From contig CM082589.2 in NCBI GenBank assembly GCA_040954595.2, forward strand, positions 2,547,275 to 2,599,974: a DNA stretch of 52,700 nt, read 5' to 3'. The notes under the pieces are model-generated. The model saw only the letters and a list, made by a program, of their open reading frames with translations. It was not told the DNA's origin and ran no database searches. The first letter of the stretch is position 1. Each line of letters opens with the position of its first letter. The position numbers were made by a program, and so were the translations under genes. The stretch is from Balanoglossus misakiensis. Its lineage: Eukaryota > Animalia > Hemichordata. Below, piece after piece: positions 6,039 to 40,589 of this stretch.

Positions 6039-6299
6039 CACCGCTGATTTTTGACTGAGCATAAAGAAAAGAGAGAAGGATGCTGCCACGATATTTTAAA
6101 TACATGAAAAAAGGAAATTTTTAGACCTTAGACCAAAATCAAAACGATGCCATAAACTACATAAGGGTTAGTGTCTTACCTTGTAATCCCTGGAAATAGC
6201 AAATGAGGGTCTAAGTTCAAATCAATGTGATTTGTTTTTCAAATAGTGAGCGCCATGAATGGCTGCAAACCTCCACGAATTCTGGCTCAGGGTATCAAT

Positions 6300-6831: not shown

Positions 6832-7144
6832 CACTCTGCTTCTGTTTCTCACACATTTCCTCTGTCTGTCTCTTTCATATTTTAACCGACCGAAATAGCA
6901 GACGACAAAGCCCACACATTTGAAATGACCCTTCAGAACAAGCTGATACCAGCTTAATGACCATGCGTAAGGCATACAATATAGCATGATATTTAAACAA
7001 ATAGATTTGCACGTTACTGTATTGTTTGCGGGTAAATCTACATTTTCAGACTTCTAGATTTATAGATTGTTTAGCCTATCTAAAACGTGTTTCGATGTTT
7101 TTGTGTAAATCGCTGAGATATTTTGTGGCGGCGTCGACGAAGGC

Positions 7145-13799: not shown

Positions 13800-14351
13800 A
13801 CCAAATTGCTCCATTAAGTAACTATAACATTACTCACACCAATAAAAAAACATGTTTTCGGAGCACAGTCATGCACTAAGCAGAAAAATCTTTCCAAGGA
13901 TACACAAGGACAAAGTAGTCTTTTTCTCTCAAAGTTGACTTTCTGATAAAATATTCAATATACACTCTATCTCATTTTCTGAATCAAAGTTTTGATATCT
14001 GATTTGTTTTCTTTCCTGGTATCACAACTTGCGTTATACTTCTGTGGGATTCAGACACTGTCACTAATTTTAATTTTTTCACGTCGATTATTACCATTTT
14101 ATTTTTATCGCCAGAATAGGGGCTAGTGCGATTTTATAAATTGGCAGCATAGTCTGACTTACCAATCTCTAAAATATGAGATGTGTTTGTTGTAAGTTAT
14201 TGTGGAACATATTCACAATTCTACACCAGTTTCTATTCATATTGTCCTTCATATTCAGTGACCCACTATAAGTGTGCAAGTATAGGTGAAACTCTCACCA
14301 TTTCTTTGTTGTCTTTGTCATTGTCGTGATGCACAACGATTACTGCTGTGT

Positions 14352-17300
14352 TTATTGGGCAAACACTTTAATGCAGTGATTGGTTTGGTCAACTACAGCC
14401 ACTCTGCATGGGACATCATTGGTCAGTGTGATACCATGTGGCCACCCAAGTCCATCCTCATCACTGTCAATGCGAGATATGAATCTGCCTTTGCTGTCGA
14501 ACTTCACCACGCGTTTGTTTCCTTTGTCACAGACATACACATTTCCGTCTTTATCTGTCACTATTCCCGATGGCCAATTCAGGCTGACATCTGCGCTGAT
14601 GTTGCGAAATGAGTATAAAAACTCACAGTCTGCATTGAACACCTGAACTCGGTAATTGTTCATATCTGATACAAATGCTTCTCCTCGACTGTTGATATCC
14701 ACATATGAAGGTCCGAAGAATTCTCCCTCTTTAGTGCCATACTTTCCAAAGGATTTGATGTGCTGACCTTGCTGTGTGTATTTCCTGATACAGTGACTAC
14801 CTTCCTTGTCTGTGGCATCACCCTTTCCATCCCAGTCTGTGACATACACACTGCCATCTAGAGGACTGATACCAATTCCATCGGCATGTTTCAGTTCAGG
14901 TTGTCCAAAGTGCCTGAGTACATGTCCATCCTCATCGCTTACAACTACTTGATTGTTGCCCTTATCTGTCATGAAGTATTCGTCATCAGCTGATACTGAC
15001 ACATCGTTTGGTTGAAATGGTTTCTCAAACTGTGTGAACGTTAAACTTGATTTGTAATTTCCATCTCTGTCGGCTATGTGTACCCTGTTGTTACCTTTAT
15101 CAGCTGTAACAAAGTCGCCGCGTTTATTAGTAGTTATCCCTAATGGCCTTCTAAGCTGACCTTTGCCTATTATCTTCACCAAACCCTTGACAGAAATTAC
15201 AAATGGTGATCCTGGTATCGGCTGATCACCAAGGGTTATGGTGACTTCATGTCTACCACCAACATCTGCATGAATTCTCAGACTGTGTGTACCATCTCTG
15301 TTGTCAACCACTCCAACGTTTTCTTGTGACCCATCTTCTTTGCAGATCTTTGCTGTGATTGCTTTGTGTGGTATGACTGGTTTCCCTCTTCTGTATTCAA
15401 TTCTGACAATGACGTCAGCAGACTCACCCCTGACGAGTCTTTTGGGAATATCCTCTACTCTACACTGTGATGCACTGATATCGAGTTCCAGGAATCCCAA
15501 CAGTCCATGCTGCAGAGGGTCTTCAGAAGGGTTGAATCTAACTATTTCCGTTTTTATGAATTGATTCATTTGATGAACAAATTCATGAATGTGAAGCAGA
15601 GTTTGTTTCTTTGATGACATTAGGTGAGCAGAACTCCCATCATTCACCAGTGCTTCCATGTAATCGCATGCCTTGGAAATACTTCCATGTTTTTCTTCCC
15701 AATCATCCACTTCAGTTTCGATGGTGTGTCTGATCATCTTGTATTCATCTTTCATCTCTTCAACCAGTCTGAACTCTTCCCTCTTCACCATTTTTATTAT
15801 CTTCTTTGCTTTATTTCTCACTTTCTCCTCTTCCTCTTGACGATGTACTTCTAGGTCATCTTTGATACCCTCACCTCCAGTGTCACGTGACTTGACGGCC
15901 TGTTCATTTCTTCTCAACTTCGTCACCATCTCTCTCAGTTGTTTTCTGTAATCATCAGCGGCAACTTGTATCTGTCTGTGGACATGGTCAGGAATAGGAT
16001 GTGCAGTGATACATTCAGGACAGATGCATACTTGACAACTATCACAAAACAGATGTACTTCATTCTGTGTGTGAAAGCTGCAGTACACTTGACCTTGTTG
16101 TGATTGCTGACTTGATACTTCTTTCAAGTATTTGTCAAGTTTGACGTCACTCTGACCTTTGACAGCTTTTGTGTCTTCATGGACAGTTATACAGGAAGAA
16201 CAAAACTTGGCACTGCACTCTCTGCATCTATGTAGCGATTCAGTTTCTTTGCAACCTTCACATTGACCTATTTCTAAATCTTCGGTTTTCTCTGTTTCTT
16301 TTGCAAAACTCGCCTTCAAAGAATAAGTTGTGAAAAATATATATTATTAAACAATTTAAGTGAGTGGTATTCCTGATTAAAAATATTCATGACACTTTTT
16401 GGTATCATTGTCGAAGGCTTATACTTATGAAAAATGATCTCGAGAATCAAAGTATAATAAACACGTGACAAAGCAGTATATTATATGATGTACGTTGTTA
16501 AAACAGTTTACTTGAACATACATGTATAGTGATTTCAACCCGATGATGTTCACGTAATGTACACCAAACTTTATATTCCACTGGAAATGATTACCTGGGT
16601 ATTAAATGTTTACTTACTGTTGAGAGCGCACCTCGTTTTGTTCTCTCACGAACTGCAATTTTTTCAGCTAGATCTTTTTCAACCTGCAGTCGTTTGATTT
16701 CGGCTTGCTGAATTGATTCTGTCTGCTTCAGTTCAGCAATCTGTGCAGCGTTAAAGTTAGCTTGCTTCTTGAGTTTTTCTAGCTGATCTTTGACTTCGTC
16801 TGTGTCTATTTCTAAGTCCTCAGTTTTGTGTGCTTCCTTTGCAATACTTGCCTATAAAGAAAAGATTGTGATATTTGTATTATTAAACAATTTAAAAGTA
16901 CTGATGCCAATAAAATGTCTCTCTTTTGTGGCAACACGCTTGAAGATAATTAGTCAAGTAAAAAAACACGACAAATAGTTGTATTTGATAGTAAAATTTG
17001 CAATGCATAAATGACAAAATACGGTTAGTGTCATTTCAGTAGTTTTTGTTTTGTGTATGAACTAAAATACACAATGAAAAAGGGGCCACATGGCTTAAAT
17101 TTAGTCAGTAAAGAAATTAATTTTTTGCCAATGGTTTTTCTATTGGCGAACACATTCAACAAAACACATTCAAGAAAGTTTATCTCCTAATTGAGCACGG
17201 TGACTATATTATTTTTTTGACCAGTGAATTTAATTTCATTTGGAAGAACTATGAGTAAAACTTCATGAAAATGACAAAATCAGAAGCAATCAGACGATAA

Positions 17301-19965
17301 ATATGTCTTAAAAAGCTTAAAAAGTGTGTACCTATATCTTAGCTTGGCGCCAAGTTTTACTTTTAAATCCATTACTAGTTTACATACCGTCAGTCGATTG
17401 ATTTCTTCTTCACATTCTGCCTTTGTAATTTGAAGATTCTTAATCACATTTTGGTCTGCAGCATGCTTCAATGCCACGAGCTTCACTACAGCTTTACTGT
17501 AATTTAGGGCCACCTACAAAATATACATAATACATGCATCCTTTTATCAGACTTTGCTCATGTCAAGAATATAAGACTTGCAACATGTTCGGATATAAAT
17601 CGCTTGATTCTGTTGAGCGATAAATTTCTTCCACTCCATGGCGACACATCAGAGTCGAAATCGGTTGAACGGATGTAGGATGTAGGTCTACATTAAGAAT
17701 GTCATTGTATGTATCGGTAAACTAAATTTTGGTAAGTTGAGCATCAAAGTCTAATTGATAAGTCTTTATAGACAGCTACATTACTACGGTTGCATTCGGA
17801 CTGGAGTCCATATTATCATTAGTAAATAGTACTAGTCACAACCTAGGCGACTAAGGTCAACCTTATGACCCTGACAACCCATGAATGTTGATAACATATC
17901 GTTTGGTCAAAGGTGATTATTGATATTCTGAAACTGACCCCACCTGAGTGATATGGGTCATGGATTCCCGAGTGGCCGAAAATATACTTTATAGAATAAA
18001 CTTATAAGGGCATGGGAATCGCGTCAGTTGACTACGTGCACTTACCAAAGACGTCGACACAAGTTTCATTTTCATATTTGCTGCATATTTCTGGTGCTCT
18101 GTCTTGAGTTCTGCTGCATATTTGGAAGCTGTCTCCTTCTCTGCTTTGAGTTCTTTGATTCTGTGCTGTGATGCCTGGAGAAGAGACCTTCTGCCGAATT
18201 CTGATATTTCATTTAAAGTCGGCCAGACTGTTGACATCAAGTTCAGTACATCGATACAAGGAAATCTCAGTGTGATGGACTGCAATCTTCTGTTTCTTGC
18301 GTTCTCTGTGTGTAAACAAAATATTTAAATATCGGGATGCACATATACCACAGCTACTATCACATTATACTCAGGGTACAGCAACAAGAAAATATAGCAA
18401 AATTAAATGGTGATATGGGAAATTATAAGCTATATTCGGGCAAAATTATTACTCGAATACGTGTGATGCCGCCAACTGCATAAAGGTATACATTTCGTGA
18501 TAAGCTGTTTTGATTACAGGCATACAACATCTCATTTTATGTAACGTCGATAAAATGCGTTTTAATTGATTACCTTTGAAATATTGTATTCCTATGTCCA
18601 ACTGTAACTGGTCAACTTGAACAGCTATGTAGAATTCAACATTGGATGCTTTGTCTGCAATTAGTGCTTTGATTCTCGGTGATATCAGGATGTCACTCAA
18701 TTCTTGCTCAACATCGCCATTTCTAAGTCCTTTTCTGAAGCACTGGATACCATATATCTCAAAAGCTCGAAGTGCTAGGATAACAGATGATATCTTTATC
18801 CCCATCAGCTCTATGCGATACTGTTTAAGGGCTTTATACATCGCCTTGGACTTGTCAGGACATTCTCCTTTCTTGATTTCAGCGATTTCGTATTTGTATA
18901 TCTCCTTTGCACTCTGGAATAATTCTAATTGTATCCATTGCTCTAATTGATCGCCGCGTTTTGCCAGATCTATGCTGACATCAAAATCTGAAATTGTAAT
19001 GTTTTTGATGAGTTTCAATATACATGTATACAGAGTGAACTTTTAAAGTATGGACTAAAATCTAATTAATTATCTATCAAAAGTCTCATGTTACTCAGTC
19101 TGGCTGTAAAATTCAATGACGCATTACTGATCAAATACCGACTGATTGCTAGATAAAAACACACAGAGAATAAGGATGCGTTTACTGCTATTCGGGGATG
19201 AAGGAATGTCAATTACATTGTAACGGCTTACTAATTTTTGACCTCTCAATGCCCCAAATAATACAGAAGGTACTCACCAACGTAGGGCTGCATTTCTGAT
19301 CCTGGCAGGTCAGTGACACTTGATCGCCTTCTTCTTTGCCCTTAAGTAAAATAAAATGTAAAAATGCATTGATAAAACTTACAAAGTATCGAAAACAGAG
19401 TTACTTGCCAATTTCTCCCGCTGATTTTCAAAACCGTTCCCCAAGTTTAAGTACAAGTACCTGACCAGTCCATAAATAAATGCATCACCAAATACCCCAC
19501 AGGCAGAGTAGAGGACAAGGTGTTATCCTTCTGTAGTAAAATCATTATTTTTTTAAACGGTAATAAAAGGGAAAGTTATTCACTTTTAAAATAGCTTGTA
19601 TCTGTCCGTTTGAAGGAATCTGTAGCTGACGCCATAATGTGATTGTTATAATGAGGTTCAGTATCCGTAAAAGACTCACCTAATGCGTTCGATTGAAAAG
19701 TTTCCACTTTCTTCTTTAGCTCTGGGAGTTTTAAAAGTCCCATCAGTTCAACCAATACCTCCACGTTCTCTTCGGACACATGACCACTTTCTTCCAATTT
19801 CTCAAAAACGTCCATAGCAGTTTCGGTTTTCTCAACTTCGGTTTTGGTCAGTTGGTTCCCTCTGATTAGCGACTTCATCAGCTTTACATTTTCCTTGCTT
19901 AGTTCTTGGTGTAAAGTTAGTAAGAGAATCCTGAGCGGCGGTATTTTGGTTGACCTAGTCTCCAT
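14352..19965 (-). CDS. DED / TRADD-N-like / coiled-coil / B-box x2 / coiled-coil / filamin / NHL protein (RING-less TRIM-NHL fusion), copy 1, 1114 aa
   Basis: Exons 19965-19680 (DED), 19340-19278, 18987-18574 (TRADD-N-like), 18305-18046, 17513-17388, 16851-16618, 16313-14352 (B-boxes to NHL). All GT-AG, phases 1,1,1,0,0,0, total 3345 nt open. Motifs CxxH..CxxC..CxxC..H..H, DNRDGTHS...PIPGSPF and six P.G..D..N.RV repeats. Confidence 0.85.
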
Positions 19966-22121
19966 GCTTATAAAATGGCGTCAACCAACCATAACCATAC
20001 TCATCTAATCACAATTTTTGTGCATTTTTGCTGCACCTGAAATAAAATTATACGCCATTTTGGTCAATAAGGACTGTTGAACTTTACAACAGAACAGGGC
20101 GGAGCATTAACACGTAAACATAGTCAATGATTTATTGCATAGGTCTGGGACTAATTGGAGAAATGAAATAACAACATGTTCTTGTAAATATATAACGATG
20201 CAGATGGGGGGGGGGGGGGGGTGATGTTAGTCTAATGTAACTTCGTCGCCGCGAATGTGAAGATAGAAGGCCCGCAACATTACAAACTACAGTGTTCCGT
20301 ATCAACCATAAAAATTTGATTGGTATCAAAATCACTTATGTCCTGAACCCACAATATGAATGTTCAGAAAAATCTGTCTATAAATCATTGCTAACTGCCA
20401 ATATTTTAAAGTCATATATCCAAACTTATATTGAAATCTATGTATCAGGCGGCTAGTATAGTCCTTGTCAACATGACAAAGACTATACTGTACAGCCATA
20501 GGCATGAGATACAAAACCAATTAAATCAACATCCACGATCTACATTACTTGTTTGTCTGATTCTAAATATACACCAGGTCGAAGTGTAGATTTAGCTTAT
20601 ATCCGCCGACAAACGTTTCTGTACGTTTATCAACTTGTGGCGTACTGGGCAGGTCGCCAGCTTTGGCTCCAGAAGTCGATCGATTGGTGGGTCTCTCCTT
20701 ATGTCTAAGGTAAAGTCAATAAATGTTAGCAGACACTAGTACGCGTTGTTTTAGAACTTTATCAGTGAGACATGTCCTGACACAACAATGCATAGCTGAA
20801 CTGCCAGTCTGCTGTTTGGCAACAGTGGAACTTGTATTAGACTAGCGGAGTAGGTTAAAATGGGCCACAATTTGAAACGGGGAGAGGTGTGGCGCAGAAT
20901 TGTCTGTGTTCACACACACCTGTACGCAGAGCTATAAGTAATGTGGTAGTAGCTTTGGCTTGTAAGTAGATGAGGAGTGTTTATTTTGTTTGGCAAATGA
21001 ACTCAACTTCGAGGTTGGCGCCATTTTTAACGTTGGAAATAACTTTCGTCTATTCGTCTAATTACTGGCACAGGTCGCAGCACCCGAGCCTGCGCAGATT
21101 TACGGCACGCCGAAGCCTTGACACTCGGGAAAGATTTTCTACCTTTGCTCTAATATCTGGGGTAGTTCGTCCTGTCATTGTTGTGTAGATTAGGTAAAGG
21201 TAACTATATTAAAATGTTGTGTGTTTAGATAAAAAGTGAAAACAAATAAACTTCTCCAAGTTAAAAGGGCGCGTTTACATCTTCGAAGTTTGTTGGCACA
21301 TTTCTTCATAGTGTAAACATAGTGAATTATCATGAATATGGGGACTGGGCAGTGGTCGGGGAGTCGATGCGTTCTCAAAGCGCCACCAATATAATGTCTA
21401 TTCGAAAGTATGCGGTATGCAGTAGAGTATACGGTGAAAATCTAATAATGTGGTCAGAAACCGCACGACACTTTATCAGTGAGACATGTCCTGACACAAA
21501 AATGCATAGCTGAACTGCCAGTCCGCCGTTTGGCAACAGTGTAGAAAATAGTTAGAAAAATCTATCGGTGAGCATATCAAACAGTCGATATTACAAGATC
21601 ATCTTGTCCTCGAACTTGAAAAGTCTCCAAGCATGAATCTGTATGCAAATTTAACAAACTCCCGAAAAGATTATCATTCTTTCGCACAAACAGGAATTTT
21701 GTGTAACACGGTCAGCATCAGTACAGTACCACGTTACTCGAATTAGGGTCACAACATCCACAGGGGATGGGCGTTTTATGTGAACTATAAACTTGATTGA
21801 AATAGCTGACTAGCTGACACGAAAGTAACATAAATGCCACCATATTATAAAAACACAGGAATTATAATCTATCAAGTTCAAATCTCTGTCAGGCATGAGA
21901 CGTTTCCCAGTTTGTGATTTACAGGAAGTGAATAACTCAGTCTTCAGTTTGATTGTTCACTCATGAGTTATTGTGGAACATTTGCACAATTTGACTCCAG
22001 TTTTTATGCCTATTGTCCTTCATATTCAGTGACCACTATTTGTGTGCAAGTATAGGTGAAACCCTCACCATTTCTTTTTTGTCTTTGTCATTTTCGTGAT
22101 GCACAACGTTTACAGAAGTGT

Positions 22122-25100
22122 TTATTGGGCAAACACTTTAATGCAGTCATTGATGCAGTCAACTACAGCCACTCTGCATGGGACATCATTGGTCAGTGTG
22201 ATACCATGTGGCCACTCAAGTCCATCCTCATCACTGTCAATGCGAGATATGAATCTGCCTCTGCTGTCGAACTTCACCACGCGTTTGTTTCCTCTGTCAC
22301 AGACATACACATATCCGTCTTCATCTGTCACCACTCCCCTAGGGAATTTCAGGCTGACATCTGCGCTGATGTTGCGTAATGAGTACAAAAACTCACAATC
22401 TGCATTGAACACCTGAACACGGTTATTGTTTATATCTGATACAAATGCTTCTCCTCGACTGTTGATATCCACATATACAGGTCCGAAGAATTCTCCCTCT
22501 TCAGTGCCATGTTTTCCAAAGGATTTGATGTGCTGACCTTGCTGTGTGTATTTCCTGACACAGTAACTACCTTCCTTGTCTGTGTCATCACCCTTTCCAT
22601 CATAGTCTGTGACATACACACTGCCATCTAGAGGACTGATACCAATTCCTTGGGCATATTTCAGTTCAGGTTTTCCGAAGTGTCTGAGTACTTGTCCATC
22701 CTCATCGCTTACAACTACTTGACTGTTGCCCCGATCAGTCATGAAGTATTCATCATCAGCTGATACTGACACATCCTTTGGTTGAAAGGGCTTCTCAAAC
22801 TGTGTGAATGTTAAACTTGATTTGTAATTTCCATCTCTGTCGGCTATGTGTAGCCTATTGTTATCTCTATCAGCTGTAACAAAGTCGCCGTGTTTATTAG
22901 TAGTTATCCCTAATGGTCTGTCAAGCTGACCTTTGCCTATTATCTTCACCAAGCCCTTGACAGAAATTACAAATGGTGATCCTGGTATCGGCTGATCACC
23001 AAGGGTTATGGCGACTTCATGTCTACCACCGACATCTGCGTGAATTCTCACACTGTGTGTACCATCTCTGTTGTCAACCACTCCAACGTCTACTTGTGAC
23101 CCATCTTCTTTACAGAACTTTGCTGTGATTGCTTTGTATGGAATGACTGGTTTTCCTCTTCTGTCTTCGATTCTGACAATGACGTCAGCAGACTCACCCC
23201 GGACGAGTCTTTTGGGAATATCCTCTACTCTACACTGGGATGCACTGATATCGAGTGTCAGAAATCCCAGCATTCCATGCTGCAGAGGGTCAGCAGAAGG
23301 ATGGAATTTGATTAACTCGGATTTTATGAACTGATTCACTTTATGAACAAATTCTTGAATGTGAAGCAGAGTTTGTTTCTTTGACGACATTAGGTGAGCA
23401 GAACTCCCATCATTCACCAGTGCGTCAATATAATCGCATGCCTTGGAAATATTTCCATGTTTTTCTTCCCAATCATCTACTTCAGTTTCGATGGTGTGTC
23501 TGATCATCTTGTATCCAAGTTTCATCTCTTCAACCAGTCTGAACTCTTCCCTCTTCACCATTTTTAGTATCTTCTTTGCTTTATTTCTCACTTTCTCCTC
23601 TTCCTCTTGACGATGTACTTCCAGGTCATCTTTGATACCCTCACCTCCAGTGTCACGTGACATGACGGCCTGTTCAGTTCCTCTCAACTTCACCACCATC
23701 TCTCTCAGTTGTTTTCTGTAATCATCAGCGGCAACTTGTATCTGTCTGTGGACATGGTCAGGAATAGGATGTGCAGTGATACACTCAGGACAGATGCATA
23801 CTTGACAGCTATCACAAAACAGATGTACTTCATTCTGTGTGTGAAAGCTGCAGTACACTTGACTTTGTTGTGATTTCTGACTTGATATTTCTTTCAAGTA
23901 TTTGTCAAGTGTGACGTCACTCTGACCTTTGACTGCTTCTGTGTCCTCATGGACAGTTATACAGGAAGAACAAAACTTGGCACTGCACTCTCTGCATCTA
24001 TGTAGCGATTCAGTTTCTTTGCAACCTTCACATTGACCTATTTCTAAATCTTCGGTTTTCTCTGTTTCTTTTGCAAAACTCGCCTTTAAAGAAAAAGTTG
24101 TGAAAAATATATATTATTAAACAATTTAAGGGACTGGTTTTCCTGATTAAAAATATTCTGACACTTTTTGGTATCATTGTCGAAGGCTTAAATTTATGAA
24201 AAAACGATCTCGAGAATCAAAGTATAATAAACACGTGACAAAAGCAGTATATTATATGCTGTACGTTATTAAAACAGTTTACTTGAACATACATGTATAG
24301 TGATTTCAACCCGATGATGTTCACGTAATGTACACCAAACTTTATATTCCATTGGAAATGATTATCTGGGTATTAAATGTTTACTTACTGTTGAGGGCGC
24401 ACCTCGTTTTGTTCTCTCACGAACTGCAATTTTTTCAGCTAGCTCTTTTTCAATCTGCAGTCGTTTGATTTCGGCTTGCTGAATTGATTCTGTCTGCTTC
24501 AGTTCAGCAATCTGTGCAGTGTTAATGTTGGCTTGCTTCTTGAGTTTTTCTAGCTGATCTTTGATTTCGTCTGTGTCTATTTCTAAGTCCTCAGTTTTGT
24601 GTGCTTCCTTTGCAATACTTGCCTATAAAGAAAATATTGTGATATTTGTATTATTAAACAATTTAAAAGTATTGATGCCAATAAAATGTCTCTCTTTTGT
24701 GGCAACACGCTTGAAGATAATTAGTCAAGTAAAAAAAACACGACAAATAGTTGCATTTGATAGTAAAATTTGCAATGCATAAATGACAAAATACGGTTAG
24801 TGTCATTTCAGTAGTTTTTGTTTTGTGTATGAACTAAAATACGCAATGAAACAGGGGTCACATAGCTTAAATTTAGTCAGTAAAGAAATGAAGTTTTCAC
24901 CAATGGTTTTTCTATTGGCGAACACATTCAACAAAGTTTATCTCCTAATTGAGCACGGTGACTATATTATTTTTTTGACCAGTGAATTTAATTTCATTTG
25001 GAAGAACTATGACTAAAACTTCATGAAAATGACAAAATCAGAAGCAATCAGACGATAAATATGTCTTAAAAAGCTTAAAAAGTGTGCACCTATACCTTAG

Positions 25101-27722
25101 CTTGGCGCCATGTTTTACTTTTAAATCCGTTACTATTTTACATACCGTCAGTCGATTGATTTCTTCTTCACATTCTGCCTTTGTGATTCGAAGATCCTTA
25201 ATCACATTTTGGTCTGCAGCATGCTTCAATGCCACGAGTTTCACCACAGCTTTACTGTAATTTAGGGCCACCTACAAAATATACATAATACATGCACCCT
25301 TTTATCAGACTTTGCTCATGTCAAGAATATAAGACTTGCAACAGGTTCGGATATAAATCGCTTGATTCTGTTGAGCGATAAATTTCTTCCACTCCATGGC
25401 GACACATCAGAGTCGAAATCGGTTGAACGGATGTAGGCCTTGGTCTACATTAAGAATGTCATTGTATGTATCGGTAAACTACATTTTTGTAAGTTGAGCG
25501 TCAACGTCTAATTCTTAAGTCTTTATAGACAGGTACATTACTACGATTGCATTCGGACTGGAATCCATATTATCATTAGTAAATAGTACTAGTCACAACC
25601 TAGGCGACTAAGGTCAACCTTATGACCCTGACAACCCATGAATGTTGATAACATATCGTTGGGTCAAAGGTGATTATTGATATTCTGAAACTGACCCCAC
25701 TTGAGTGATATGGGTCATGGATTCCCGAGTGGCCGAAAATATACTTTATAGAATAAACTTATAAAGGCATGGGAATCGCGTCAGTTGACTACGTGCACTT
25801 ACCAAAGACGTCGACACAAGTTTCATTTTCATATTTGCTGCATATTTCTGGTGCTCTGTCTTGAGTTCTGCTGCATATTTGGAAGATGTCTCCTTCTCTG
25901 TTTTGAGTTCCTTGATTCTGTGTTGTGATGCCTGGAGAAGAGACCTTCTGCCGAATTCTGATATTTCATTTAAAGTCGGCCAGACTGTTGACATCAAGTT
26001 CAGTACATCGATACAAGGAAATCTCAGTGTGATGGACTGCAATCTTCTGTTTCTTGCGTTCTCTGTGTGTAAACAAAATATTTAAATATCGGGATGCACA
26101 TATACCACAGCTACTATCACATTATACTCAGGGTACAGCAACAAGAAAATATAGCAAAATTAAATGGTGATATGGGAAATTATAAGCTATATTCGGGCAA
26201 AATTATTACTCGAATACGTGTGATGCCGCCAACTGCATAAAGGTATACATTTCGTGATAAGCTGTTTTGATTACAGGCATACAACATCTCATTTTATGTA
26301 ACGTCGATAAAATGCGTTTTAATTGATTACCTTTGAAATATTGTATTCCTATGTCCAACTGTAACTGGTCAACTTGAACAGCTATGTAGAATTCAACATT
26401 GGATGCTTTGTCTGCAATTAGTGCTTTGATTCTCGGTGATATCAGGATGTCACTCAATTCTTGCTCAACATCGCCATTTCTAAGTCCTTTTCTGAAGCAC
26501 TGGATACCATATATCTCAAAAGCTCGAAGTGCTAGGATAACAGATGATATCTTTATCCCCATCAGCTCTATGCGATACTGTTTAAGGGCTTTATACATCG
26601 CCTTGGACTTGTCAGGACATTCTCCTTTCTTGATTTCAGCGATTTCGTATTTGTATATCTCCTTTGCACTCTGGAATAATTCTAATTGTATCCATTGCTC
26701 TAATTGATCGCCGCGTTTTGCCAGATCTATGCTGACATCAAAATCTGAAATTGTAATGTTTTTGATGAGTTTCAATATACATGTATACAGAGTGAACTTT
26801 TAAAGTATGGACTAAAATCTAATTAATTATCTATCAAAAGTCTCATGTTACTCAGTCTGGCTGTAAAATTCAATGACGCATTACTGATCAAATACCGACT
26901 GATTGCTAGATAAAAACACACAGAGAATAAGGATGCGTTTACTGCTATTCGGGGATGAAGGAATGTCAATTACATTGTAACGGCTTACTAATTTTTGACC
27001 TCTCAATGCCCCAAATAATACAGAAGGTACTCACCAACGTAGGGCTGCATTTCTGATCCTGGCAGGTCAGTGACACTTGATCGCCTTCTTCTTTGCCCTT
27101 AAGTAAAATAAAATGTAAAAATGCATTGATAAAACTTACAAAGTATCGAAAACAGAGTTACTTGCCAATTTCTCCCGCTGATTTTCAAAACCGTTCCCCA
27201 AGTTTAAGTACAAGTACCTGACCAGTCCATAAATAAATGCATCACCAAATACCCCACAGGCAGAGTAGAGGACAAGGTGTTATCCTTCTGTAGTAAAATC
27301 ATTATTTTTTTAAACGGTAATAAAAGGGAAAGTTATTCACTTTTAAAATAGCTTGTATCTGTCCGTTTGAAGGAATCTGTAGCTGACGCCATAATGTGAT
27401 TGTTATAATGAGGTTCAGTATCCGTAAAAGACTCACCTAATGCGTTCGATTGAAAAGTTTCCACTTTCTTCTTTAGCTCTGGGAGTTTTAAAAGTCCCAT
27501 AAGATCAACCAATACCTCCACGTTCTCTTCGGACACATGACCACTTTCTTCCAATTTCTCAAAAACGTCCATAGCAGTTTCGGTTTTCTCAACTTCGGTT
27601 TTGGTCAGTTGGTTCCCTCTGATTAGCGACTTCATCAGCTTTACATTTTCCTTGCTTAGTTCTTGGTGTAAAGTTAGTAAGAGAATCCTGAGCGGCGGTA
27701 TTTTGGTTGACCTAGTCTCCAT
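22122..27722 (-). CDS. DED-TRADD-N-like-TRIM-NHL protein, copy 2, 1114 aa
   Basis: Exons 27722-27437, 27097-27035, 26744-26331, 26062-25803, 25271-25146, 24622-24389, 24083-22122. Same exon lengths and splice sites as copy 1. Confidence 0.85.
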
Positions 27723-29325
27723 GCTTATAAAATGGCGTCAACCAACCATAACCATACTCATCTAATCACAATTTTTGTGCATTTTTGCTGCACCTGAAAT
27801 AAAATTATACGCCATTTTGGTCGATAAGGACTGTTGAACTTTACAACAGAACAGGGCGGGAGCATTAACACGTAAACATAGTCAATGATTTATCGCAAAG
27901 GTCTGGGACTAATTGGAGAAATGAAATAACAACACGTTCTTGTAAATATATAACGATGCAGATGGGGGTGGGGGGGTGATGTTAGTCTAATGTAACTTCG
28001 TCGCCGCGAATTTGAAGATAGAAGGCCCGCAACATTACAAACTAGTGTTCCGAATAAACCATTAAATTTTGATTGGTATCAAAATCACTTAAGTCCCGAA
28101 TCCAGAATACATGAATGCTTCAGAAAAATCTGTCTATAAATCATTGCTAACTGCCAATATTTTAAAGTCATATATCCAAACTTATATTGGAATCTATGTA
28201 TCAGACGGCTAGTATAGTCCTTGTCAACATGACAAAGACTATACTGTACAGCCATAGGCATATCTACATTACTTGTTTGTCTGATTCTAAATGTACACCA
28301 GGTCGAAGTGTAGATTTAGTAACGAGCTTATTCGCCGACAAAGTTTATCAACTTGTGGCGTACTGGGCAGGTCGCCAGCTTTGGCTCCAGAAGTCGATAA
28401 ATTGGTGGGTCTCTCCTTATGTCTAAGGTATTATCAATAAATGTTAGCAGACACTAGTACGCGTTGCTTTATAACTTTATCAGTGAGACATGTCCTGACA
28501 CAAAAATGCATAGCTGAACTGCCAGTCTGCCGGTTGGCAACAGTGGAACTTGTATTAGACTAGGGGAGTAGGTTAAAATGGGCCACAATTTGAAACGGGG
28601 AGAGGTGTGGCGCAGAATTGTCTGTGTTCACACAGACCTGTACGCAGAGCTATAAGCAATGTAATAGTTGCTTTGGCTTGTAAGTAGATGAGGAGTGTTC
28701 ATTTTGTTTGGCAAATGAACTCCAACTTCGAGGTTGGCGCCATTTTTAACGTTGGAAATAACTTTCGTCTATTCATCTAATTACTGGCACAGGTCGCAGC
28801 GCCCGAGCCTGCAGTATGCGCAGATTTACGGCACGCCGAAGCCTTGACACTCGGGAAAGATTTTCTACCTTTGCTCTAATATCTGGGGTAGTTCGTCCTG
28901 TCATTGTTGTGTAGATTAGGTAAAGGTAACTATATTAAAATGTTGTGTGTTTAGATAAAAAGTGAAAATAAATAAACTCAGAATCTCCAAGTTAAAGGGG
29001 CGCGTGTAAGTCTTCGAAGTTTGTTGGAACACTTCTTCATAGTAACAGAGTGAATATGGGGACCGGACCGGGCAGTGGTCGGGGAGTCGATGCGTTCTCA
29101 AAGCGCCACCAATGTCTATTCCAAAGTATGCGGTATGCAGTAGAGTATGCGTTGAAAATCTAATAATGTGGTCAGAAACCGCACGACACTGAAATGTCCA
29201 ATTACTCCACGGGAAGTCACTCTTGACCCAGTAGTGGAAAAACCGACCGTGTGTGCAACTTAAGAATTTCACAGCTGAAATCAAGTTCACCAACGTCGAG
29301 TCATTCATAGAAGGATACGAGAGAG

Positions 29326-29386
29326 ATGAGACTGGAATTTCACTTCGCTTTTGTCACCGTTATTCTGTTGTTTCTCGTCCTTTTAG
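29326..29386 (+). pseudogene. Orphan duplicate of the signal-peptide exon 1 of the AChBP-like gene
   Basis: ATG...TTA G|GTGAG encodes MRLEFHFAFVTVILLFLVLL, a near copy of 36960-37020. It has no downstream exons of its own within unit 2. Confidence 0.65.
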
Positions 29387-30572
29387 GTGAGTACAATAGA
29401 ATTTCGTTGGGTATATTAGGAGAGTAAAATATTTGGCAAGAAGCATAAATTTCAAGCAATATTTCATAACTTTTTCCGCGCACATTTACAGGGTGGGTGT
29501 AGTCCCGTCTGCGGATATGCGTCCCCATACCACACAGTCGAGTGTCAAGTCAAACTATACAATGCGTTATTACTATTTATCACATTTCCAATTTACTTTG
29601 AAATGACATTTACATGTACGTTGACAGGGTCTCTCAATGCTGATGATGTGTTTATAAATGGAAAAGTCGCCCATGTGAAGTTCAGGCGACCATCTCCCTT
29701 TAAAGCGACCAGTCTGTCGTATCAGATCAAAAGTCACCAAGACTGCGCGTTTATTCCTTAGTAAACGCTCTGAGAAGTTACTCTTTTGATACATTCTGTT
29801 TTTTTGCGTTTGGTACATCAATCGGCACCAGTGCTAAAGAAAAACTGCATTAACACAAGCAAGCTTCTGAGTCATAACCTTCACACTGACTTCAATTAAC
29901 TCACAAGTCAACATATGTTTTTGATGTCCTTACACTTCAGAAAGCACTGCCTTGGCCATTTGACTAAAAACAAAGTACTTAGAAAAATCTATCGGTGAGC
30001 ATATCAAACAGTGATTACAAAATCATCTTGTCCTCGAACTTGAAAAGTCTCCAAGCATGAATTTAAATAAAACAAGAATATGTATGCAAATTTAACAAAC
30101 TCCCGAAAAGATAATCATTCTTTCGCACAAACAGGAATTTTGTGTAACGCGGTCAGCATCAGTACAGTACCACGTTACTCAAATTAGGGTCACCACATCC
30201 ACGGGAGATGGGCGTTTTATGTGAACTATAAACTTGATTGAAATAGCTGACGACGGAGTAATTTCTGTCATGCAAGACGCACGAAAGTAACATAAATGCA
30301 ACCACATTATAAAAAACAAAGGAATTATAATCTATACCCCAAGTTCAAATCGCTGTCAGGCATGAAACGTTTCCCAGTTTGTGATTTATAGGAAGTGAAT
30401 AACTCAGTCTTCAGTTTCATTGTTCCCTCGTGAGTTATTGTGGAACATTTTCACAATTTGACACCAGTTTCTATGCCTATTGTCCTTCATATTCATGACC
30501 CACTATTTGTGAAACTCTCACAATGTCTTTGATTTTTGTCACTTTCAGGATACACAACTTTTGCTGCTGTGT

Positions 30573-33500
30573 TTATTGGGCAAACACTTTAATGCAGTCA
30601 TTTTCATGGTCAACTACAGCCACTCTGCATGCCACATCATTGGTCAGTGTGATACCAGCTGGCCACTCAAGTCCATCCTCATCACTGTCAATGCGAGATA
30701 TGAATCTGCCTCTGCTGTCTAACTTCACCACGCGTTTGTTTCCTTTGTCACAGACATACACATATCCGTCTTTATCTGCCACTATTCCCCTTGGCCATTT
30801 CAGGCTGTCATCTGCGCTGATGTTTCCAAATGAGTATAAAAACTCACAGTCTGCACTGTAAACCTGAACACGGTAATTGTTCATATCTGATACAAATGCT
30901 TCTCCTCGACTGTTGATATCCACATATCCAGGTCCTTTGAATTCTCCCTCTTCAGTGCCATGCTTTCCAAAGGATTTGATGTGCTGACCTTGCTGTGTGT
31001 ATTTCCTGACACAGTGACTACCTTCCTTGTCTGTGTCACCAGCCTTTCCATCCCAGTCTGTGACATACACACTGCCATCTAGAGGACTGATAGCAATTCC
31101 TTGGGCATATTTCAGTTCAGGTTTTCCGAAGTGCCTGAGTACTTGTCCATCCTCATCGCTTACAACTACTTGATTGTTGCCGTCATCTGTCATGAAGTAT
31201 TCGTCATCAGCTGATACTGCCACTTTGTTTGGTAGAAAGGGCTTCTCAAACTGTGTGAACGTTAAACTTGATTTGTCATTTCCATCTCTGTCGGCTATGT
31301 ATACCCTATTGTTACCCCAGTCAGCTGTAACAAAGTCGCCGTGTTTATTAGTAGTTATCCCTACTGGCCTTCTAAGCTGACCTTTGCCTATTACCTTCAC
31401 CAAACCCTTGACAGAAATTACAAATGGTGATCCTGGTATCGGCTGATCACCAAGTGTTATGTTGACTTCATGTCTACCACCGACATCTGCGTGAATTCTC
31501 AGACTGTGTGTACCATCTCTGTTGTCAATAACTCCAATGTCTTTTTGTGACCCATCTTCTTTGCAGATCTTTGCTGTGATTGCTTTGTGTGGTGTGACTG
31601 GTTTCCCTCTTCTATCTTCGACTCTGACAATGACGTCAGCAGACTCACCCCTGACGAGTCTTGTGGGAATATCCTCTACTCTACACTGGGATGCACTGAT
31701 ATCTAATGTCAGTAATCCCAGCATTCCATGCTGCAGAGGGTCAGCAGAAGGATGGAATTTGATTAACTCGGATTTTATGAACTGATTCACTTTATGAACA
31801 AATTCATGAATGTGAAGCAGAGTTTGTTTCTTTGATGACATTAGGTGAGCAGAACTCCCATCAATCACCAGTGCTTCCATGTAATCGCATGCCTTGGAAA
31901 TATTTCCATGTTTTTCTTCCCAATCATCCACTTCAGTTTCGATGGTGTGTCTGATCATCTTGTATTCATCTTTCATCTCTTCAACCAGTCTGAACTCTTC
32001 CCTCTTCACCATTTTTATTATCTTCTTTGCTTTATTTCTCACTTTCTCCTCTTCCTCTCGATGATGTACTTCCAGGTCATCTTTGATATCCTCACCTCCA
32101 GTGTCACGTGACATGACGGCCTTTTCAGTTCCTCTCAACTTCGCCACCATCTCTCTCAGTTGTTTTCTGTAATCATCAGCGACATCGTGTATCTGTCTGT
32201 GGACATGGTCAGGAATAGGATGTGCAGTGATACACTCAGGACAGATGCATAGTTGACAGCTATCACAAAACAGATTTACTTCATTCTGTGTGTGAACGCT
32301 GCAGTATGCTTGACTTTGTTGTGATTGCTGACTTGATATTTCTTTCAAATATTTGTCGAGTGTGACGTCACTCTGACCTTTGACTGCTTCAGTGTCCTCG
32401 TGGACAGTTATACAGGAAGAACAAAACTTGGCATTGCACTCTCTGCATCCATGTAGCGATTCAGTTTCTTTGCAACCTTCACATTGACCTATTTCTAAAT
32501 CTTCGGTTTTCTCTGTTTCTTTTGCAAAACTCGCCTTTAAAGAAAAAGTTGTGAAAAATATATATTATTAAACAATTTAAGGGAGTGGTATTCCTGATTA
32601 AAAATATTCATGACACTTTTTGGTATCATTGTCGAAGGATTAAACTTATGAAAAACGATCTCGAGAATCAAAGTATAATAAACACGTGACAAAAGCAGTA
32701 TATTATATGCTGTATGTTATTAAAACAGTTTACTTGAACATACATGTATAGTGATTTCAACCCGATGATGTTCACGTAATGTACACCAAACTTTATATTC
32801 CACTGGAAATGGTTATCTGGGTATTAAATGTTTACTTACTGTTGAGGGCGCACCTTGTTTTGTTCTCTCACGAACTGCAATTTTTTCAGCTAGCTCTTTT
32901 TCAACCTGCAGTCGTTTGATCTCGGCTTGCTGCATTGATTCTGTCAGCTTCAGATCAGCAATCTCTGCAGTGTAAATGTTGGCTTGCTTCTTGAGTTTCT
33001 CTAGCTGATCTTTGACTTCGTCTGTGTCTATGTCTAAGTCCTCAGTTTTGTGTGCTTCCTGTGCAATAATTGCCTATAAAGAAAAGATTGTGATATTTGT
33101 ATTATTAAACAATTTAAAAGTATTCATGCCAATAAAATGTTTCTCTTTTGTGGCAACACGCTTGAAAATTATTAAAGTAAATAATGTTTTTTCTATCGGT
33201 GAACACATTCACCAAAGTTTATCTCCTAATTGAGCACGGTGACCATATGATTTTTTGGACCAGTGAATTTAATTTCATGGGAAGAACTATGAGTATAACT
33301 TCATAAAAAGACAAAATAAGAAGCTTTCTGGCATTTCTCAATTTAATCCCATTGGCTTACATATGACCGTCCCGTGTTTCGATTTTTCAATCAGACGATA
33401 AATATGTCTTTAAAAGCTTAAAAGTGTGCACCTATACCTTAGCTTGGTGCCAAGTTTTACTTTTAAATCCGTGGCTATTTTACATACCGTCAGTCGATTG

Positions 33501-36287
33501 ATTTCTTCTTCACATTCTGCCTTTGTGATTCGAAGATCCTTAATCACATTTTGGTCTGCAGCATGCTTCAATGCCACGAGTTTCACTACAGCTTTACTGT
33601 AATTTAGAGCCACCTACAAAATATACATAATACATGCACCCTTTTATCAGACATTGCTCATGTCAAGAATCAAGACTTGCAACAGGTTCGGATATTAATC
33701 GCTTGATTCTGTTGAGCGAAAAATTTCTTCCACTCCATGGCGACACATCAGAGTCGAAATCGGTTGAACGGATGTAGGCCATGGTCTACATTAAGAATAT
33801 GTCATTGTATGTATCGGTAAACTACATTTTGGTAAGTTGAGCGTCAAAGTGTAATTGATAAGTCTTTATAGACAGGTACATTACTACGATGGCATTCGGA
33901 CTGGAGTCCATATTGTCATTAGTGAATAGTACTAGTCACAACCTAGGCGACTAAGGTCAACCTTATGACCCTGACAACCCATGAATGTTGATAACATATC
34001 GTTGGGTCAAAGGTGACTGTTGATATTCTGAAACTGACTCACCTGCGTGTAGGGATCGTGGAATACCGAGTGGTCGAAAATATGCATTATAGAATTAAAC
34101 ATTGGTGAGGGAGGGGGGGGGGGGGGGGTCGTGAATCGTGTCAATTTACTTCGTGCACTTACCAGAGACATCGACACAAGTTTCATTTTCATATTTGCTG
34201 CATATTTGGAAGATGTCTCGTTGTCTGTTTTGAGTTCTTTGATTCTGTTCTGGTGCTCTGCTTTGAGTTCTTTGATTCTGTGTTGTGATGCCTGGAGAAG
34301 AGACCTTCTGCCGAATTCTGATATTTCATTTATAGTCGGCCAGATTGTTGACATCAAGTTCAGTACATCGATACAAGGAAATCTCAGTGTGATGGACTGC
34401 AATCTTCTGTTTCTTGCGTTCTCTGTGTACACACATAGCGATGTATTAGTCATAATAATGTTAAGCAACACGTTTGGCTCACGTGAAGTTTGGGCCTCTG
34501 TGGTTATATTTAATTCATTACAAGGCTGTCATCTTTAACGAGGCATATCTTACCATTTCTGTCAAGCATACATGAATAATATTGCTAGATGAGTTATGTA
34601 TTAAACAGAACAGTGTCACTGACATGTTTGAATGTTACAATAGTATTCAGCACTTCAGGAAAACACACCTTGCACGATCTTGGACAAACTCGCTATAATT
34701 TACAAGTCGATTCACTTGACGCTTAGTTTTGTCTGTTTGCGCTATATATATGTTTGACTCTAAGGAAAATAATGCAAAAGACGAATATCCTATTTTCAAT
34801 TGCCCTTTACGACGGTTTAAGGCATCAAAAATATCAGCAGAAAAGTTTAGGTCTATGGTATTTGTTTCCATGCACTTACCTTCAAAGTATTCCATGCCCC
34901 TTTCTAATTCAGCGTGGTCAACCAGTGCAGCTATTTCTAACAGCCCCTCTCTTTTCACAAGCATCTTCATACTATTGGAAATAAGTATGTCGGAAAGCAG
35001 GCGCTCCAGATCACCACAGTCCAGCCCTTTTTTGAAACACTGTATGTTACTCCGACTGAAGGTTCGCAAAATCAGAATAACGGACGACATCTGGATACGT
35101 ATTAACTTGGCTTGGTAACGGTCAAAGGCCTTGTCGAGTAATTTCGATTTGTCTGGATTATTGCCATTCTTAATTTCTTCCACCTCAACTTCAAATATCT
35201 TCTTCGCGGCTTCATATAAATGGGCTTCTATCTGTTGTTTTTGTTGGATTTGAAGTTCTAGCCGGAAATCTGTAAAAAAATACACAAAGGCGATTAAATT
35301 GTATAATCTGTTACTGGTATCACACTTCAAAATATTTGTTGAAAAAGTCTACTTTCTTCAACCAATAAGCAATCGGTATAAATAATGATACGTTCTAAAA
35401 TATCGGATCCGGTCACGCTATCTCGGCTATTAAAGTTGATTTTCTAATGACTCAGCAAAAGTATACCATTGCCAGTGATGGAGGAAATGAATAGCATTCG
35501 TTTCGCACTGGCGGAAGCTGACAATGCATGGGGTCGTAAAGGGTTCAGGCAGTCAAATAGTGAAGTACGCTTTTCACTTTAATGGAACTGTCTGGGCTTC
35601 GCGAACCGGGCCAGCACACACAACAACATCGTCTATATGCACTCAGAACCACTTGATCATTAAAGGCGTTGGTCGTACGTGAATTAACGCCACCAAATGC
35701 ACTTGCAAATTTAACCACAGTTACCTTGGAACTTACCCCAATAGGGACTAGCCTTGTCCATTTCTTGTCCAGGACGATCAGCATCACTGTAACGCCGTCG
35801 TTTCTCTACTAAAGAAAACAGAACATGCATTGTGATTAATTAAACATGTATTGAAAATGCATGAAAATATCCGTTTTCATTTTAAAAATAACGGCTGGAA
35901 TTGTTCTTAAAAACGGAAAAAAAATATTCAGGACAAACAACATGTACCCTGTGCTGGCCTCCAGTCAAAGGGTTATAAATAGAACTGTCACTCACCTACA
36001 GCTACCGCACCAGATTGAAAATTTTCAACTTTTTCCTTTAGCCGTGGACGCTTCAAATGATCCATTAATTCGATGACTAGTCCAAGATTAGTTGCAGATA
36101 TATATCCACGTGTTTCCAAATGTACGAATAGGCTCATTGCAGTTTTCGTCTTCTCTGCGTCTTCTTCGCTTAACTGGCGACCGTAAAGTAGGAGTTTCAT
36201 CGTAGATACTTCTTCGCCGCTAAGTTCGCTCTGTAATGCTAGAAAAAGTGACCTCAATGGGCAAACGTTGGTCACACTCACTTCCAT
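30573..36287 (-). CDS. DED-TRADD-N-like-TRIM-NHL protein, copy 3 (divergent N-terminal module), 1111 aa
   Basis: Exons 36287-35996 (DED), 35808-35737, 35269-34880 (TRADD-N-like), 34422-34163, 33613-33488, 33073-32840, 32534-30573. Same phases as copies 1/2, total 3336 nt open. Confidence 0.85.
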
Positions 36288-36959
36288 GGTTAAATCGCTG
36301 TCTTCCAATCTTTAACTACACTATGGGAAAGCGACAATTTCTATTTTTAGAGGGAATACGTTAAACATGCCCCGACACAAACGGCCGCCATTTTGTTTTC
36401 TGGTCTCTTTTACAGTTCAAAATAGTAGGACAACAGCCCTGCGTGATTTATGGAACATGGTACATGCCTGGGGCCGGGGTAAACAGAAACATGGCGGCCA
36501 TTCGTATCCTGCCAAATCGCGTTATAAAACTGGTTTGCTGTTTACACGTGTATACAGGGTGCCCAAACTCAAGTCCGTTAATCAGTCAAGTGCGTGTAAC
36601 GCTGAAGGGCCTACATATAATGCGGCCCTGGACCCGTTTTTACTATGACATCCATTTCACGGGTGTCATAATGCAAACCGAGTAAACATGAAGTCCAGCA
36701 GGGCGGTACAATAGTCGGGAGGAGTCGATGCGTTCTCAAAGCGCCACCAATGTCTATTCCAAAGTATGCGGTATGCAGTAGAGTATGCGTTGAAAATCTA
36801 ATAATGTGGTCAGAAACCGCACGACACTGAAATGTCCAATTACTCCACGGGAAGTCACTCTTGACCCAGTAGTGGAAAAAACAGACCGTGTGTGCAACTT
36901 GAGAATTTCACAGCTGAAATCAAGTTCACCAACGTCATTCATAGAGGGATACAAAAGAG

Positions 36960-39900: not shown

Positions 39901-40589
39901 GTCAAGTGTCAATCTTGGCTGTCTCGCCGGAGTCTATCTGGAGTTTCCTGCGCTACGAACAACTTGTAAATGGGTTAGTTCATTTCTCATTACTCATCTG
40001 CTGAACATGGCGACGAAAAGAATTTCGCCTCAGCCATGTGAACGACCAAATTTCTTAATGCTATGAACCAATATCTGAATGAACGACTTCATAACAACTC
40101 ATGCAGATATGTCTTTTACTCGACAGTACTTTACGGAAACCAGTGAACGCAACACGTCACGAGGAATCACCCACAGCATTGGTGACGTCAGAGGGTCTGG
40201 TCGAGCTCGTGACACCTCGGGTCGTCACGGAGACGCCCTGTTTGCAGCACGCCCTCTCAAACGACACTTACACATGCGAGATAACGCTCTCCAATTGGCG
40301 ATACCCGTCAACCAAGCTGAGGCTACAGTTTCCCCCAAACAGGGTGCCCGTGGATTTGCACTCTTTCATGACGGAAGAGTGGGAAGTTGCGGAAGCCACG
40401 GGCAAGATCTTCGACAGAAAGAGCGACAGCAAGTTAACCGACACGGTGTCGTCGGTCACATTTGAAATCGTTCTCCAAGAAGCAGACGTGTCCCTGTCTC
40501 ATCTTAAGAACACTGCGACCAACCTTTTGCCAACGACTTACATGTTCATGCTGTGTGCAGGACATATTTTTCTTCTTACTACTATGTAG
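36960..40589 (+). CDS. Cys-loop ligand-gated channel extracellular-domain-only protein (AChBP/nAChR-LBD-like) with signal peptide and hydrophobic C-terminal tail, 5 exons, 280 aa
   Basis: Exons 36960-37020, 39212-39363, 39581-39625, 39852-39973, 40127-40589; phases 1,0,0,2; 843 nt. Motifs LRRKLLQYYDRRKLP, WYDNRLVW, PESIW, ALVTSEGLV, C-x11-C loop, SNWRY, EEWEV. The 45-nt exon and following phase-2 exon mirror nAChR gene structure. Confidence 0.78.

Follow-up and report, generated by a model that had tools for sequence, protein, structure and literature searches.

Tandem RING-less TRIM-NHL genes headed by a death effector domain and a TRADD-N-like domain in the acorn worm Balanoglossus misakiensis: candidate intracellular immune sensors

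Gene models and predicted domains

A window of 52,700 nucleotides (nt) from the acorn worm Balanoglossus misakiensis (contig CM082589.2), which is the whole stretch of DNA analysed here and to which all positions refer, carries three tandem genes on the minus strand. Each is modelled as seven coding exons (Table 1), and the predicted proteins are stop-free and 1114, 1114 and 1111 amino acids (aa) long. In each of them the domains follow in the order death effector domain (DED), TRADD-N-like domain, likely coiled coil, two B-boxes, likely coiled coil, filamin domain and NHL propeller, with no RING. The part reaching from the DED to the first coiled coil is called the head below, and the part encoded by exon 7 the body. 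All 18 introns are bounded by GT and AG, and the intron phases are 1, 1, 1, 0, 0, 0 in every copy, the divergent copy-3 head included. The spliced model of about 1110 aa that had been proposed from the letters of the DNA (hereafter the sequence-only reading) is thus upheld in the three copies, its joins being predicted ones.

The head exons and exon 7 very probably form one fused gene. In the three copies the first methionine of the exon-7 frame comes after both B-boxes, so that an upstream exon is needed for exon 7 to use them. The introns span merely 187-549 base pairs (bp); AATAAA occurs in none of the 18 and ATTAAA in 7. Between copies 1 and 3 the mismatches in the head exons 1 and 3 fall mainly at third codon positions, a demonstration of coding constraint: exon 3 has 55, 36 and 92 mismatches at codon positions 1, 2 and 3, respectively, and uses a different codon at 36 of its 58 identical residues. 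Same-sample contigs were compared over positions 14000-33900 (the copy-3 head lies outside); among 30 indels, 12 were looked at and the four exonic ones (6 nt, 9 nt and a -1/+1 pair) preserve the frame. The acceptor of copy-3 exon 2 offers two in-frame choices 3 nt apart, at 35808 or 35805. The acceptor of exon 6 and its first ~40 coding bases duplicate those of exon 7 (16806-16895 versus 16268-16359, with equivalents in copies 2 and 3; 76-82% identity over 92 bp), and since both acceptors are phase 0, exon 6 could be skipped in frame.

Table 1. Duplication units, head tracts and predicted exons of the three genes.
Feature	Positions	Strand	Content
Duplication unit 1	14192-21964		head-to-tail, units of 7.6-8.5 kb
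Duplication unit 2	21966-30428		head-to-tail
Duplication unit 3	30430-38065		head-to-tail
Copy-1 head tract	18167-20065		differs from copy 2 at 2 of 1,899 bp; probably gene conversion
Copy-3 head tract	34429-36713		no DNA match to copies 1 and 2; likely head swap
Copy 1 exon 1	19680-19965	-	start codon, DED
Copy 1 exon 2	19278-19340	-	21-aa basic/Ser linker
Copy 1 exon 3	18574-18987	-	TRADD-N-like domain (DEDD2 clade), SS turn at aa 183-184
Copy 1 exon 4	18046-18305	-	conserved motif following TRADD-N, then likely coiled coil
Copy 1 exon 5	17388-17513	-	likely coiled coil
Copy 1 exon 6	16618-16851	-	likely coiled coil; acceptor region duplicates that of exon 7
Copy 1 exon 7	14352-16313	-	two B-boxes, coiled coil, filamin, NHL propeller, stop
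Copy 1 B-box1	16155-16262	-	in exon 7
Copy 1 B-box2	15975-16082	-	in exon 7
Copy 1 filamin	15189-15476	-	in exon 7
Copy 1 NHL	14355-15182	-	in exon 7
Copy 2 exon 1	27437-27722	-	DED
Copy 2 exon 2	27035-27097	-	linker
Copy 2 exon 3	26331-26744	-	TRADD-N-like domain, identical to that of copy 1
Copy 2 exon 4	25803-26062	-	
Copy 2 exon 5	25146-25271	-	
Copy 2 exon 6	24389-24622	-	
Copy 2 exon 7	22122-24083	-	B-boxes, coiled coil, filamin, NHL (22125-22952)
Copy 3 exon 1	35996-36287	-	divergent DED, 49% aa identity to copy 1
Copy 3 exon 2	35737-35808	-	linker; alternative acceptor 35805
Copy 3 exon 3	34880-35269	-	divergent TRADD-N-like domain, 45% aa identity to copy 1
Copy 3 exon 4	34163-34422	-	
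Copy 3 exon 5	33488-33613	-	
Copy 3 exon 6	32840-33073	-	
Copy 3 exon 7	30573-32534	-	B-boxes, coiled coil, filamin, NHL (30576-31403)

Exon 1 matches the Pfam DED profile PF01335 in the three copies with 51.7, 50.9 and 55.8 bits, above the cut-off of 35.9 (expectation values E of 1e-13, 2e-13 and 6e-15), and its best sequence matches in the PDB are the DEDs of FADD and caspase-8, so its earlier assignment as a DED holds. In the linker exon 2, a basic run followed by Ser is kept in all copies and in Ptychodera flava; it is RRxS-like, which we take to be a possible kinase site or localisation signal. DEDD2 likewise has a basic linker.

Exon 3 is very probably TRADD-N, as the sequence-only reading had suggested, on the strength of homology, a conserved turn and structural-cluster matches. 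A HMMER scan of 1.84 billion representative sequences returned three matches, one to the P. flava protein XP_070539273.1 (3e-17) and two in Saccoglossus, namely LOC102805649 (E 1.4e-8) and XP_006811155.1 (E 7.8e-7). Kaur et al. published in 2021 a list (source data 1 to their Figure 4; PMC8195603) in which the latter two are entered as DED+TRADDN-DEDD2+Coiled-coil and TRADDN-DEDD2+Coiled-coil, respectively. A tiny-Ser motif in the beta2-beta3 turn of TRADD-N is defined by the same authors (PMC8195603); a Ser-Ser preceding VIL is invariant in the 7 exon-3 rows aligned, its position in a beta turn being deduced from the sequence pattern. In the Atlas ranking for exon 3, PF20694 clusters came top (0.93, 211-214 of 256 features, family share 14-46%), and the Atlas model of a Saccoglossus homolog compared with a PF20694 cluster gave a template modelling score of 0.57. 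None of 5 rows matched Pfam PF20694 or PF09034 at E<=10, and since two members listed by Kaur et al. were among them, Pfam is blind to this branch of TRADD-N.

Two AlphaFold2 models of exon 3, built from 7 and 5 rows, were all-helical and of low confidence (predicted local distance difference test scores of 49.7 and 44.5), and a wide fold search with the first of them reached a top Z of 5.3, on helical hairpins, and is uninformative. An exon-3 profile gave 5 weak, unrelated matches among PDB sequences, and a word-index search with exon 3, a weak method, retained 0 of 371 candidates. An RRM/ACT-like alpha+beta fold would nonetheless be expected for exon 3 from its relatives. The TRADD-N-like domain occurs once per protein, after the death fold and at the junction of constant and variable parts. 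An 828-aa model of Saccoglossus aligns to the entire head (26% over 282 columns), which makes a stand-alone head gene of such a kind a plausible donor; the newer model of LOC102805649 (P0064/P0066) starts after the DED present in this older 828-aa model. Binding of TRAF2 through TRADD-N, also put forward earlier, is doubtful, the MATH domain being argued by Kaur et al. not to be a universal partner of TRADD-N (PMC8195603).

Exon 7, scanned in copies 1 and 3, gives Pfam matches to B-box, filamin and NHL, the B-box match (PF00643) exceeding its cut-off. A hidden Markov model (HMM) built from the 43 RING stretches of relatives recovered 43/43 controls, and its best match in a six-frame translation of the window had an E of 0.11, in line with the absence of a RING noted before; that match, in intron 5 of copy 1, has no RING pattern and was rejected. 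The ligands of B-box2 are intact and the last His ligand of B-box1 is replaced by Gln. The coiled coil after the B-boxes aligns with the same region of RING-bearing relatives, with a weak PML_CC match (E 0.011) and little signal in a crude heptad score, and it differs by 10-15% among the three copies. No match to a NACHT/STAND nucleoside triphosphatase (NTPase) was found in exons 1, 3, 4, 6 and 7 or in the relative P0003 (the unscanned exons 2 and 5 code for 21 and 42 aa), and all parts of the model are assigned to non-NTPase domains or short helical exons.

Relatives among acorn-worm TRIM-NHL proteins

The 62 relatives of exon 7 detected at E<=1e-30 all come from acorn worms (P. flava, Glandiceps talaboti and Saccoglossus kowalevskii). 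The best are from P. flava, with 67-68% identity, whereas most RING-bearing relatives reach 40-48% identity to the body. A RING is present in 43 of the 62 and a DED in 2. One of them, the P. flava protein XP_070539273.1 (tripartite motif-containing protein 2-like in RefSeq), has the whole layout from the DED to the last propeller blade and is RING-less; identity to the window proteins is 34% in the N-terminal part, aligned over 323 columns, and 58% over exon 7. It shares the entire domain order, the branch and the His-to-Gln change of B-box1 with the three copies, and differs by a shorter coiled-coil region, a generic name and a TRADD-N without Pfam annotation. Being an automatic RefSeq model, it is independent of the splicing predicted in the window and is not proof of it. 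A word-index search with the head of P0003, again a weak method, returned P0003 itself alone among 3,996 candidates.

A tree of the filamin-NHL part was built with a quick method and midpoint rooting on 57 rows, 9 of 63 proteins having been dropped for short coverage of that part. Together with five RING-less P. flava proteins, the three copies fall into a single branch with a Shimodaira-Hasegawa-like approximate likelihood ratio (SH-aLRT) of 100, and RING-bearing branches surround it; the RING-less clade is therefore nested among RING-bearing acorn-worm TRIM proteins. Three of the five P. flava members have no annotated DED, two of these keeping sequence homologous to the coiled-coil exons, and such models may be truncated or may have other heads. 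The simplest reading of these sequences is that the RING was replaced once by the head in one branch. One P. flava model of this branch, XP_070554797.1 (P0021), has its DED joined directly to filamin-NHL and is either a deletion form or a mis-spliced model. The acorn-worm TRIM-NHL expansion as a whole is large (P0001-P0062), and its RING-bearing members also vary on the top face of the propeller.

Probable exchange of the head and variation of the propeller

Whole duplication units of copies 1 and 2 differ by ~5%, and their nearly identical head tract runs from exon 1 to inside exon 4. The copy-3 head tract gave no match to copies 1 and 2 with blastn (E<=1e-3), its flanks being 89-93% identical to them. 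Global alignment had given 80-86% identity for the copy-3 introns 1-3; this was discarded as a gap artefact, blastn finding no match there. Both head tracts end within ~150 bases of the exon 3/4 junction. They are best accounted for by two gene conversions, one involving neighbouring copies and the other a distant paralog. Near-identical in copies 1 and 2 and replaced in copy 3, the head seems to be exchanged as one block, and head and body have had different histories. The near-identity of this tract in copies 1 and 2 may also reflect assembly smoothing.

The NHL top face is formed by the loops b-c and d-a (PMC4015489). Sites differing among the copies are concentrated there (33/102, against 20/174 elsewhere, p 3e-5), with 4/37 in the bottom loops and 16/137 in the strands. 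Twelve RNA-contact residues have been defined in zebrafish LIN41 (DrLIN41; PMC5908797), a set that does not depend on our own choice. With the conserved Pro and Asp as anchors for a blade-wise mapping, 8 of the 12 equivalent positions were found to vary, against 45 of the 264 others (p 3e-4), and 2, 3 and 2 of the 12 LIN41 residues are kept in the copies. The variable propeller of the sequence-only reading is thereby supported, its variation being concentrated on the top face and at the LIN41-contact positions.

Around the array, the sequence 20756-20827 recurs as a 72-bp copy at 21470-21541, in the spacer between copies 1 and 2, the other spacers having ~780 other bases at that place, and at ~29559-29608 many same-sample contigs end with differing loose ends, like the edge of an interspersed repeat. 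Five single-exon open reading frames (ORFs) of 383-430 codons between 905 and 10152 resemble a sulfotransferase cluster (905-2194, 3443-4633 and 4875-6095 on the minus strand, 7109-8263 and 9004-10152 on the plus strand); the first, the only one scanned, matches PF00685 (E 2e-16). On the other side lie plus-strand exons of a Cys-loop ligand-gated channel subunit at 39064-40586 (PF02931, E 4.5e-6 on 40095-40586) and minus-strand exons of a likely ferlin at ~47999-52146 (on 48346-48597, matched by a C2 domain with E 4.6e-6 and weakly by ferlin), with an imperfect palindrome of 160 bp (85%) at 42644-42802 and a direct repeat of 188 bp (74%) at 44527-44714 and 45052-45239.

Possible function and comparison with known systems

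An immune or conflict role of the three genes is probable. The more specific reading, that they encode intracellular immune sensors whose propeller binds a molecule of an invader and whose clustered DEDs recruit DED-bearing partners, has about an even chance, and so, taken separately, does an activating output of the DED. In one lineage of the acorn-worm TRIM-NHL proteins the RING would have given way to a head of DED, TRADD-N and coiled coil, and the variable face of the propeller would bind the invader molecule. By analogy with the TRIM20 structure, the coiled coil would form antiparallel dimers that a repetitive ligand could cluster. In the model of Kaur et al., TRADD-N restrains its neighbours until a flanking domain senses an invader, after which the death fold recruits a larger complex (PMC8195603); here, TRADD-N might likewise keep the neighbouring domains off until ligand binds. 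Finally, and this is the weakest step, the clustered DEDs might nucleate a FADD/caspase-8-type assembly leading to cell death or NF-kB-type signalling, in replacement of ubiquitylation.

Several points weigh against such a sensor or parts of it. The exon joins of copies 1-3 are predictions from sequence; one further protein of full layout was found, itself an automatic gene model; and the five DED-labelled rows require 3 changes on the tree, owing to the three P. flava models without annotated DED. A Phe-Leu patch and an Arg-x-Asp-Leu are signature motifs of FADD/caspase-8-type DEDs. At the position of the Phe-Leu of FADD, copies 1 and 2 have Ser-Leu and copy 3 Leu-Leu, and at that of its Arg-His-Asp-Leu they have Leu-Pro-Glu-Leu and Arg-Pro-Arg-Leu, respectively, so that canonical FADD/caspase-8 binding is not assured; these motifs are likewise altered in the relatives from P. 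flava and Saccoglossus, so that invertebrate partners may use other residues.

For the propeller, a narrow set of 48 top-face sites, drawn after the alignment had been seen, has a proportion of nonsynonymous differences (pN) of 0.24 against an exon-wide synonymous proportion (pS) of 0.089 (bootstrap ratio 2.7, 1.7-4.0); the ratio is about 1.7 against the set's own local pS of 0.138, and just 1.5 (1.0-2.3) for the broad top face. Ratios of nonsynonymous to synonymous rates (dN/dS) are 0.69, 1.23 and 0.73 for the whole NHL domain; the B-boxes give 0.24-0.32, filamin 0.26-0.51 and the coiled coil 0.51-1.14. Variable sites are also enriched in the narrow set (p<0.01) when other paralog groups are compared, in 7 of 8 (two of the groups overlap) and in 4 of the 5 purely RING-bearing ones, so that the varying face is a trait of the whole acorn-worm TRIM-NHL expansion, inherited by the DED clade. 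Binding faces may moreover drift without an arms race. The rates come from three sequences with conversion between them, which suggest diversifying selection on the propeller face and do not establish it.

cFLIP and PEA-15 cap or sequester DED assemblies, and the three proteins could similarly be decoys or brakes, whose altered DED caps or sequesters DED assemblies or binds its own kind only, the output being inhibition. We hold this to be unlikely. It would fit the FADD motifs altered in the three copies, most of all in copies 1 and 2, the presence of two DED types, 49% alike, on near-identical bodies, and the description of DEDD2, the namesake of the TRADD-N clade, as a negative regulator binding cFLIP (PMC8195603). 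Alterations of these motifs in the P. flava and Saccoglossus relatives too, where other residues may serve invertebrate partners, and DED scores well above the Pfam cut-off argue against it.

A role as RNA regulator, similar to the RING-less TRIM-NHL protein Brat, with a propeller binding host or viral RNA and a head acting as localisation or partner module, is quite improbable. The closest solved structures of the propeller are the NHL domains of Thin, TRIM2/3, TRIM71 and Brat, Loedige et al. predict RNA-binding potential for all TRIM-NHL domains, and the narrow top-face set is rich in Lys/Arg (8-10) and in aromatic residues or His (8-10) against 3-6 acidic residues. Over the whole top face, however, acidic residues equal or outnumber basic ones (14-19 versus 13-15), few LIN41 contacts are kept and most differ between the copies, a variation not expected of a conserved developmental regulator.

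There is still less to be said for an adaptor of ubiquitin ligases, which would use its coiled coil or B-boxes to pair with RING-bearing paralogs, delivering death-fold substrates to them: the abundance of such paralogs, the identity of their bodies and the intact B-box2 speak for it, the lost His of B-box1 and a coiled coil that differs even among the three copies against it. Least probable of all is a mis-joined model or assembly artefact, in which a DED-TRADD-N-coiled-coil gene lies beside a separate TRIM fragment or the assembly has placed two alleles in tandem as copies 1 and 2. Although stand-alone models of DED, TRADD-N and coiled coil exist in Saccoglossus, gene models are unstable (the newer LOC102805649 has no DED and three P. 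flava sisters start downstream of it) and copies 1 and 2 are 95% alike overall, the lack of AATAAA and of a usable start before the B-boxes, the short introns, the phases that hold even in the divergent copy, the equivalent join in P. flava and the frame-keeping exonic indels all speak for single genes, and a single diploid could not supply three alleles.

With respect to known systems, the proteins belong with the TRADD-N fusions of the DEDD2 clade; they are neither canonical TRIM ligases nor NLRs nor pyrins. Fusions of constant DED and TRADD-N regions with variable B-box, propeller or TRIM parts have been predicted in marine invertebrates, with 22 copies in hemichordates, and domain strings close to the acorn-worm layout are listed for coral, oyster and amphioxus (PMC8195603). 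The suggestion that the design was undescribed consequently fails, the layout also being present in RefSeq through P. flava. The constant head, the TRADD-N at the junction, the Ser turn and a marine sessile host are common to the DED/Death+TRADD-N proteins of Kaur et al. (DEDD2 clade) and to those described here. The 30 BBOX and 8 Filamin occurrences in the accessible part of its table include no row combining DED, TRADD-N, both B-boxes, filamin and propeller and no Saccoglossus row with B-box or filamin, Ptychodera is absent from that part, and a tandem array, head exchange or top-face variation was not found described in the accessible parts of that paper (PMC8195603). What is added here is the RING-less acorn-worm clade, the likely head exchange and the varying propeller face, the design itself being already in print and in RefSeq. 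Literature searches, which covered few subscription journals, returned no study of the DED-headed acorn-worm TRIM family besides Kaur et al., no paper on the acorn-worm TRIM-NHL expansion, and no experimental test of the TRADD-N switch model.

The parallel with NLR receptors drawn in the sequence-only reading is replaced by one with pyrin (TRIM20), which is the closer analogy because the model contains no NTPase. Pyrin itself senses indirectly. It likewise has a TRIM body in which the RING is replaced by a death fold on a long linker, and it forms the antiparallel coiled-coil dimer (PMC4455283) proposed above for the three proteins, whereas the acorn-worm genes have a DED and not a PYD, a TRADD-N, two B-boxes, and filamin-NHL in place of B30.2. 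They are likely pyrin-like in layout, and from the filamin-NHL tree they would be of independent origin. The TRIM-NHL proteins TRIM2/3/71, LIN-41 and Brat (subfamily C of Marin, PMC3503706) share with them B-box1, B-box2, a likely coiled coil, filamin and six NHL repeats, but the acorn-worm genes are RING-less, multi-copy and variable, carry a death-fold head and do not keep the RNA pocket of LIN41. DEDD2 (FLAME-3) also has an N-terminal DED followed by TRADD-N (PMC8195603) and stops there, whereas the acorn-worm proteins continue for ~860 residues. A parallel case is provided by the DED-headed RIG-I-like receptors of sea stars (PMC8662601).

As a more far-reaching and tentative possibility, the locus would be a receptor array with separately exchangeable parts, in which conversion moves the DED-TRADD-N cassette while selection reshapes the NHL face, so that new specificities become coupled to different death or signalling outputs. 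If this is true, the acorn-worm genes would, together with their analogues in coral, oyster and amphioxus, represent a pyrin-like class assembled repeatedly on TRIM-NHL proteins, with NHL as a surface for pathogen recognition. Drawn from domain lists, the TRADD-N switch model that Kaur et al. propose for immunity in marine invertebrates is a prediction (PMC8195603). Copies 1 and 2 share a head and differ in their propeller face, and copy 3 has a near-identical body and a different head. Input and output are thereby separated, and the model can be tested directly at this locus. Should the propellers bind microbial ligands, NHL would count with B30.2 and LRR among the diversified recognition surfaces of deuterostomes, and a death fold would have replaced a RING on several occasions, as it did in pyrin.

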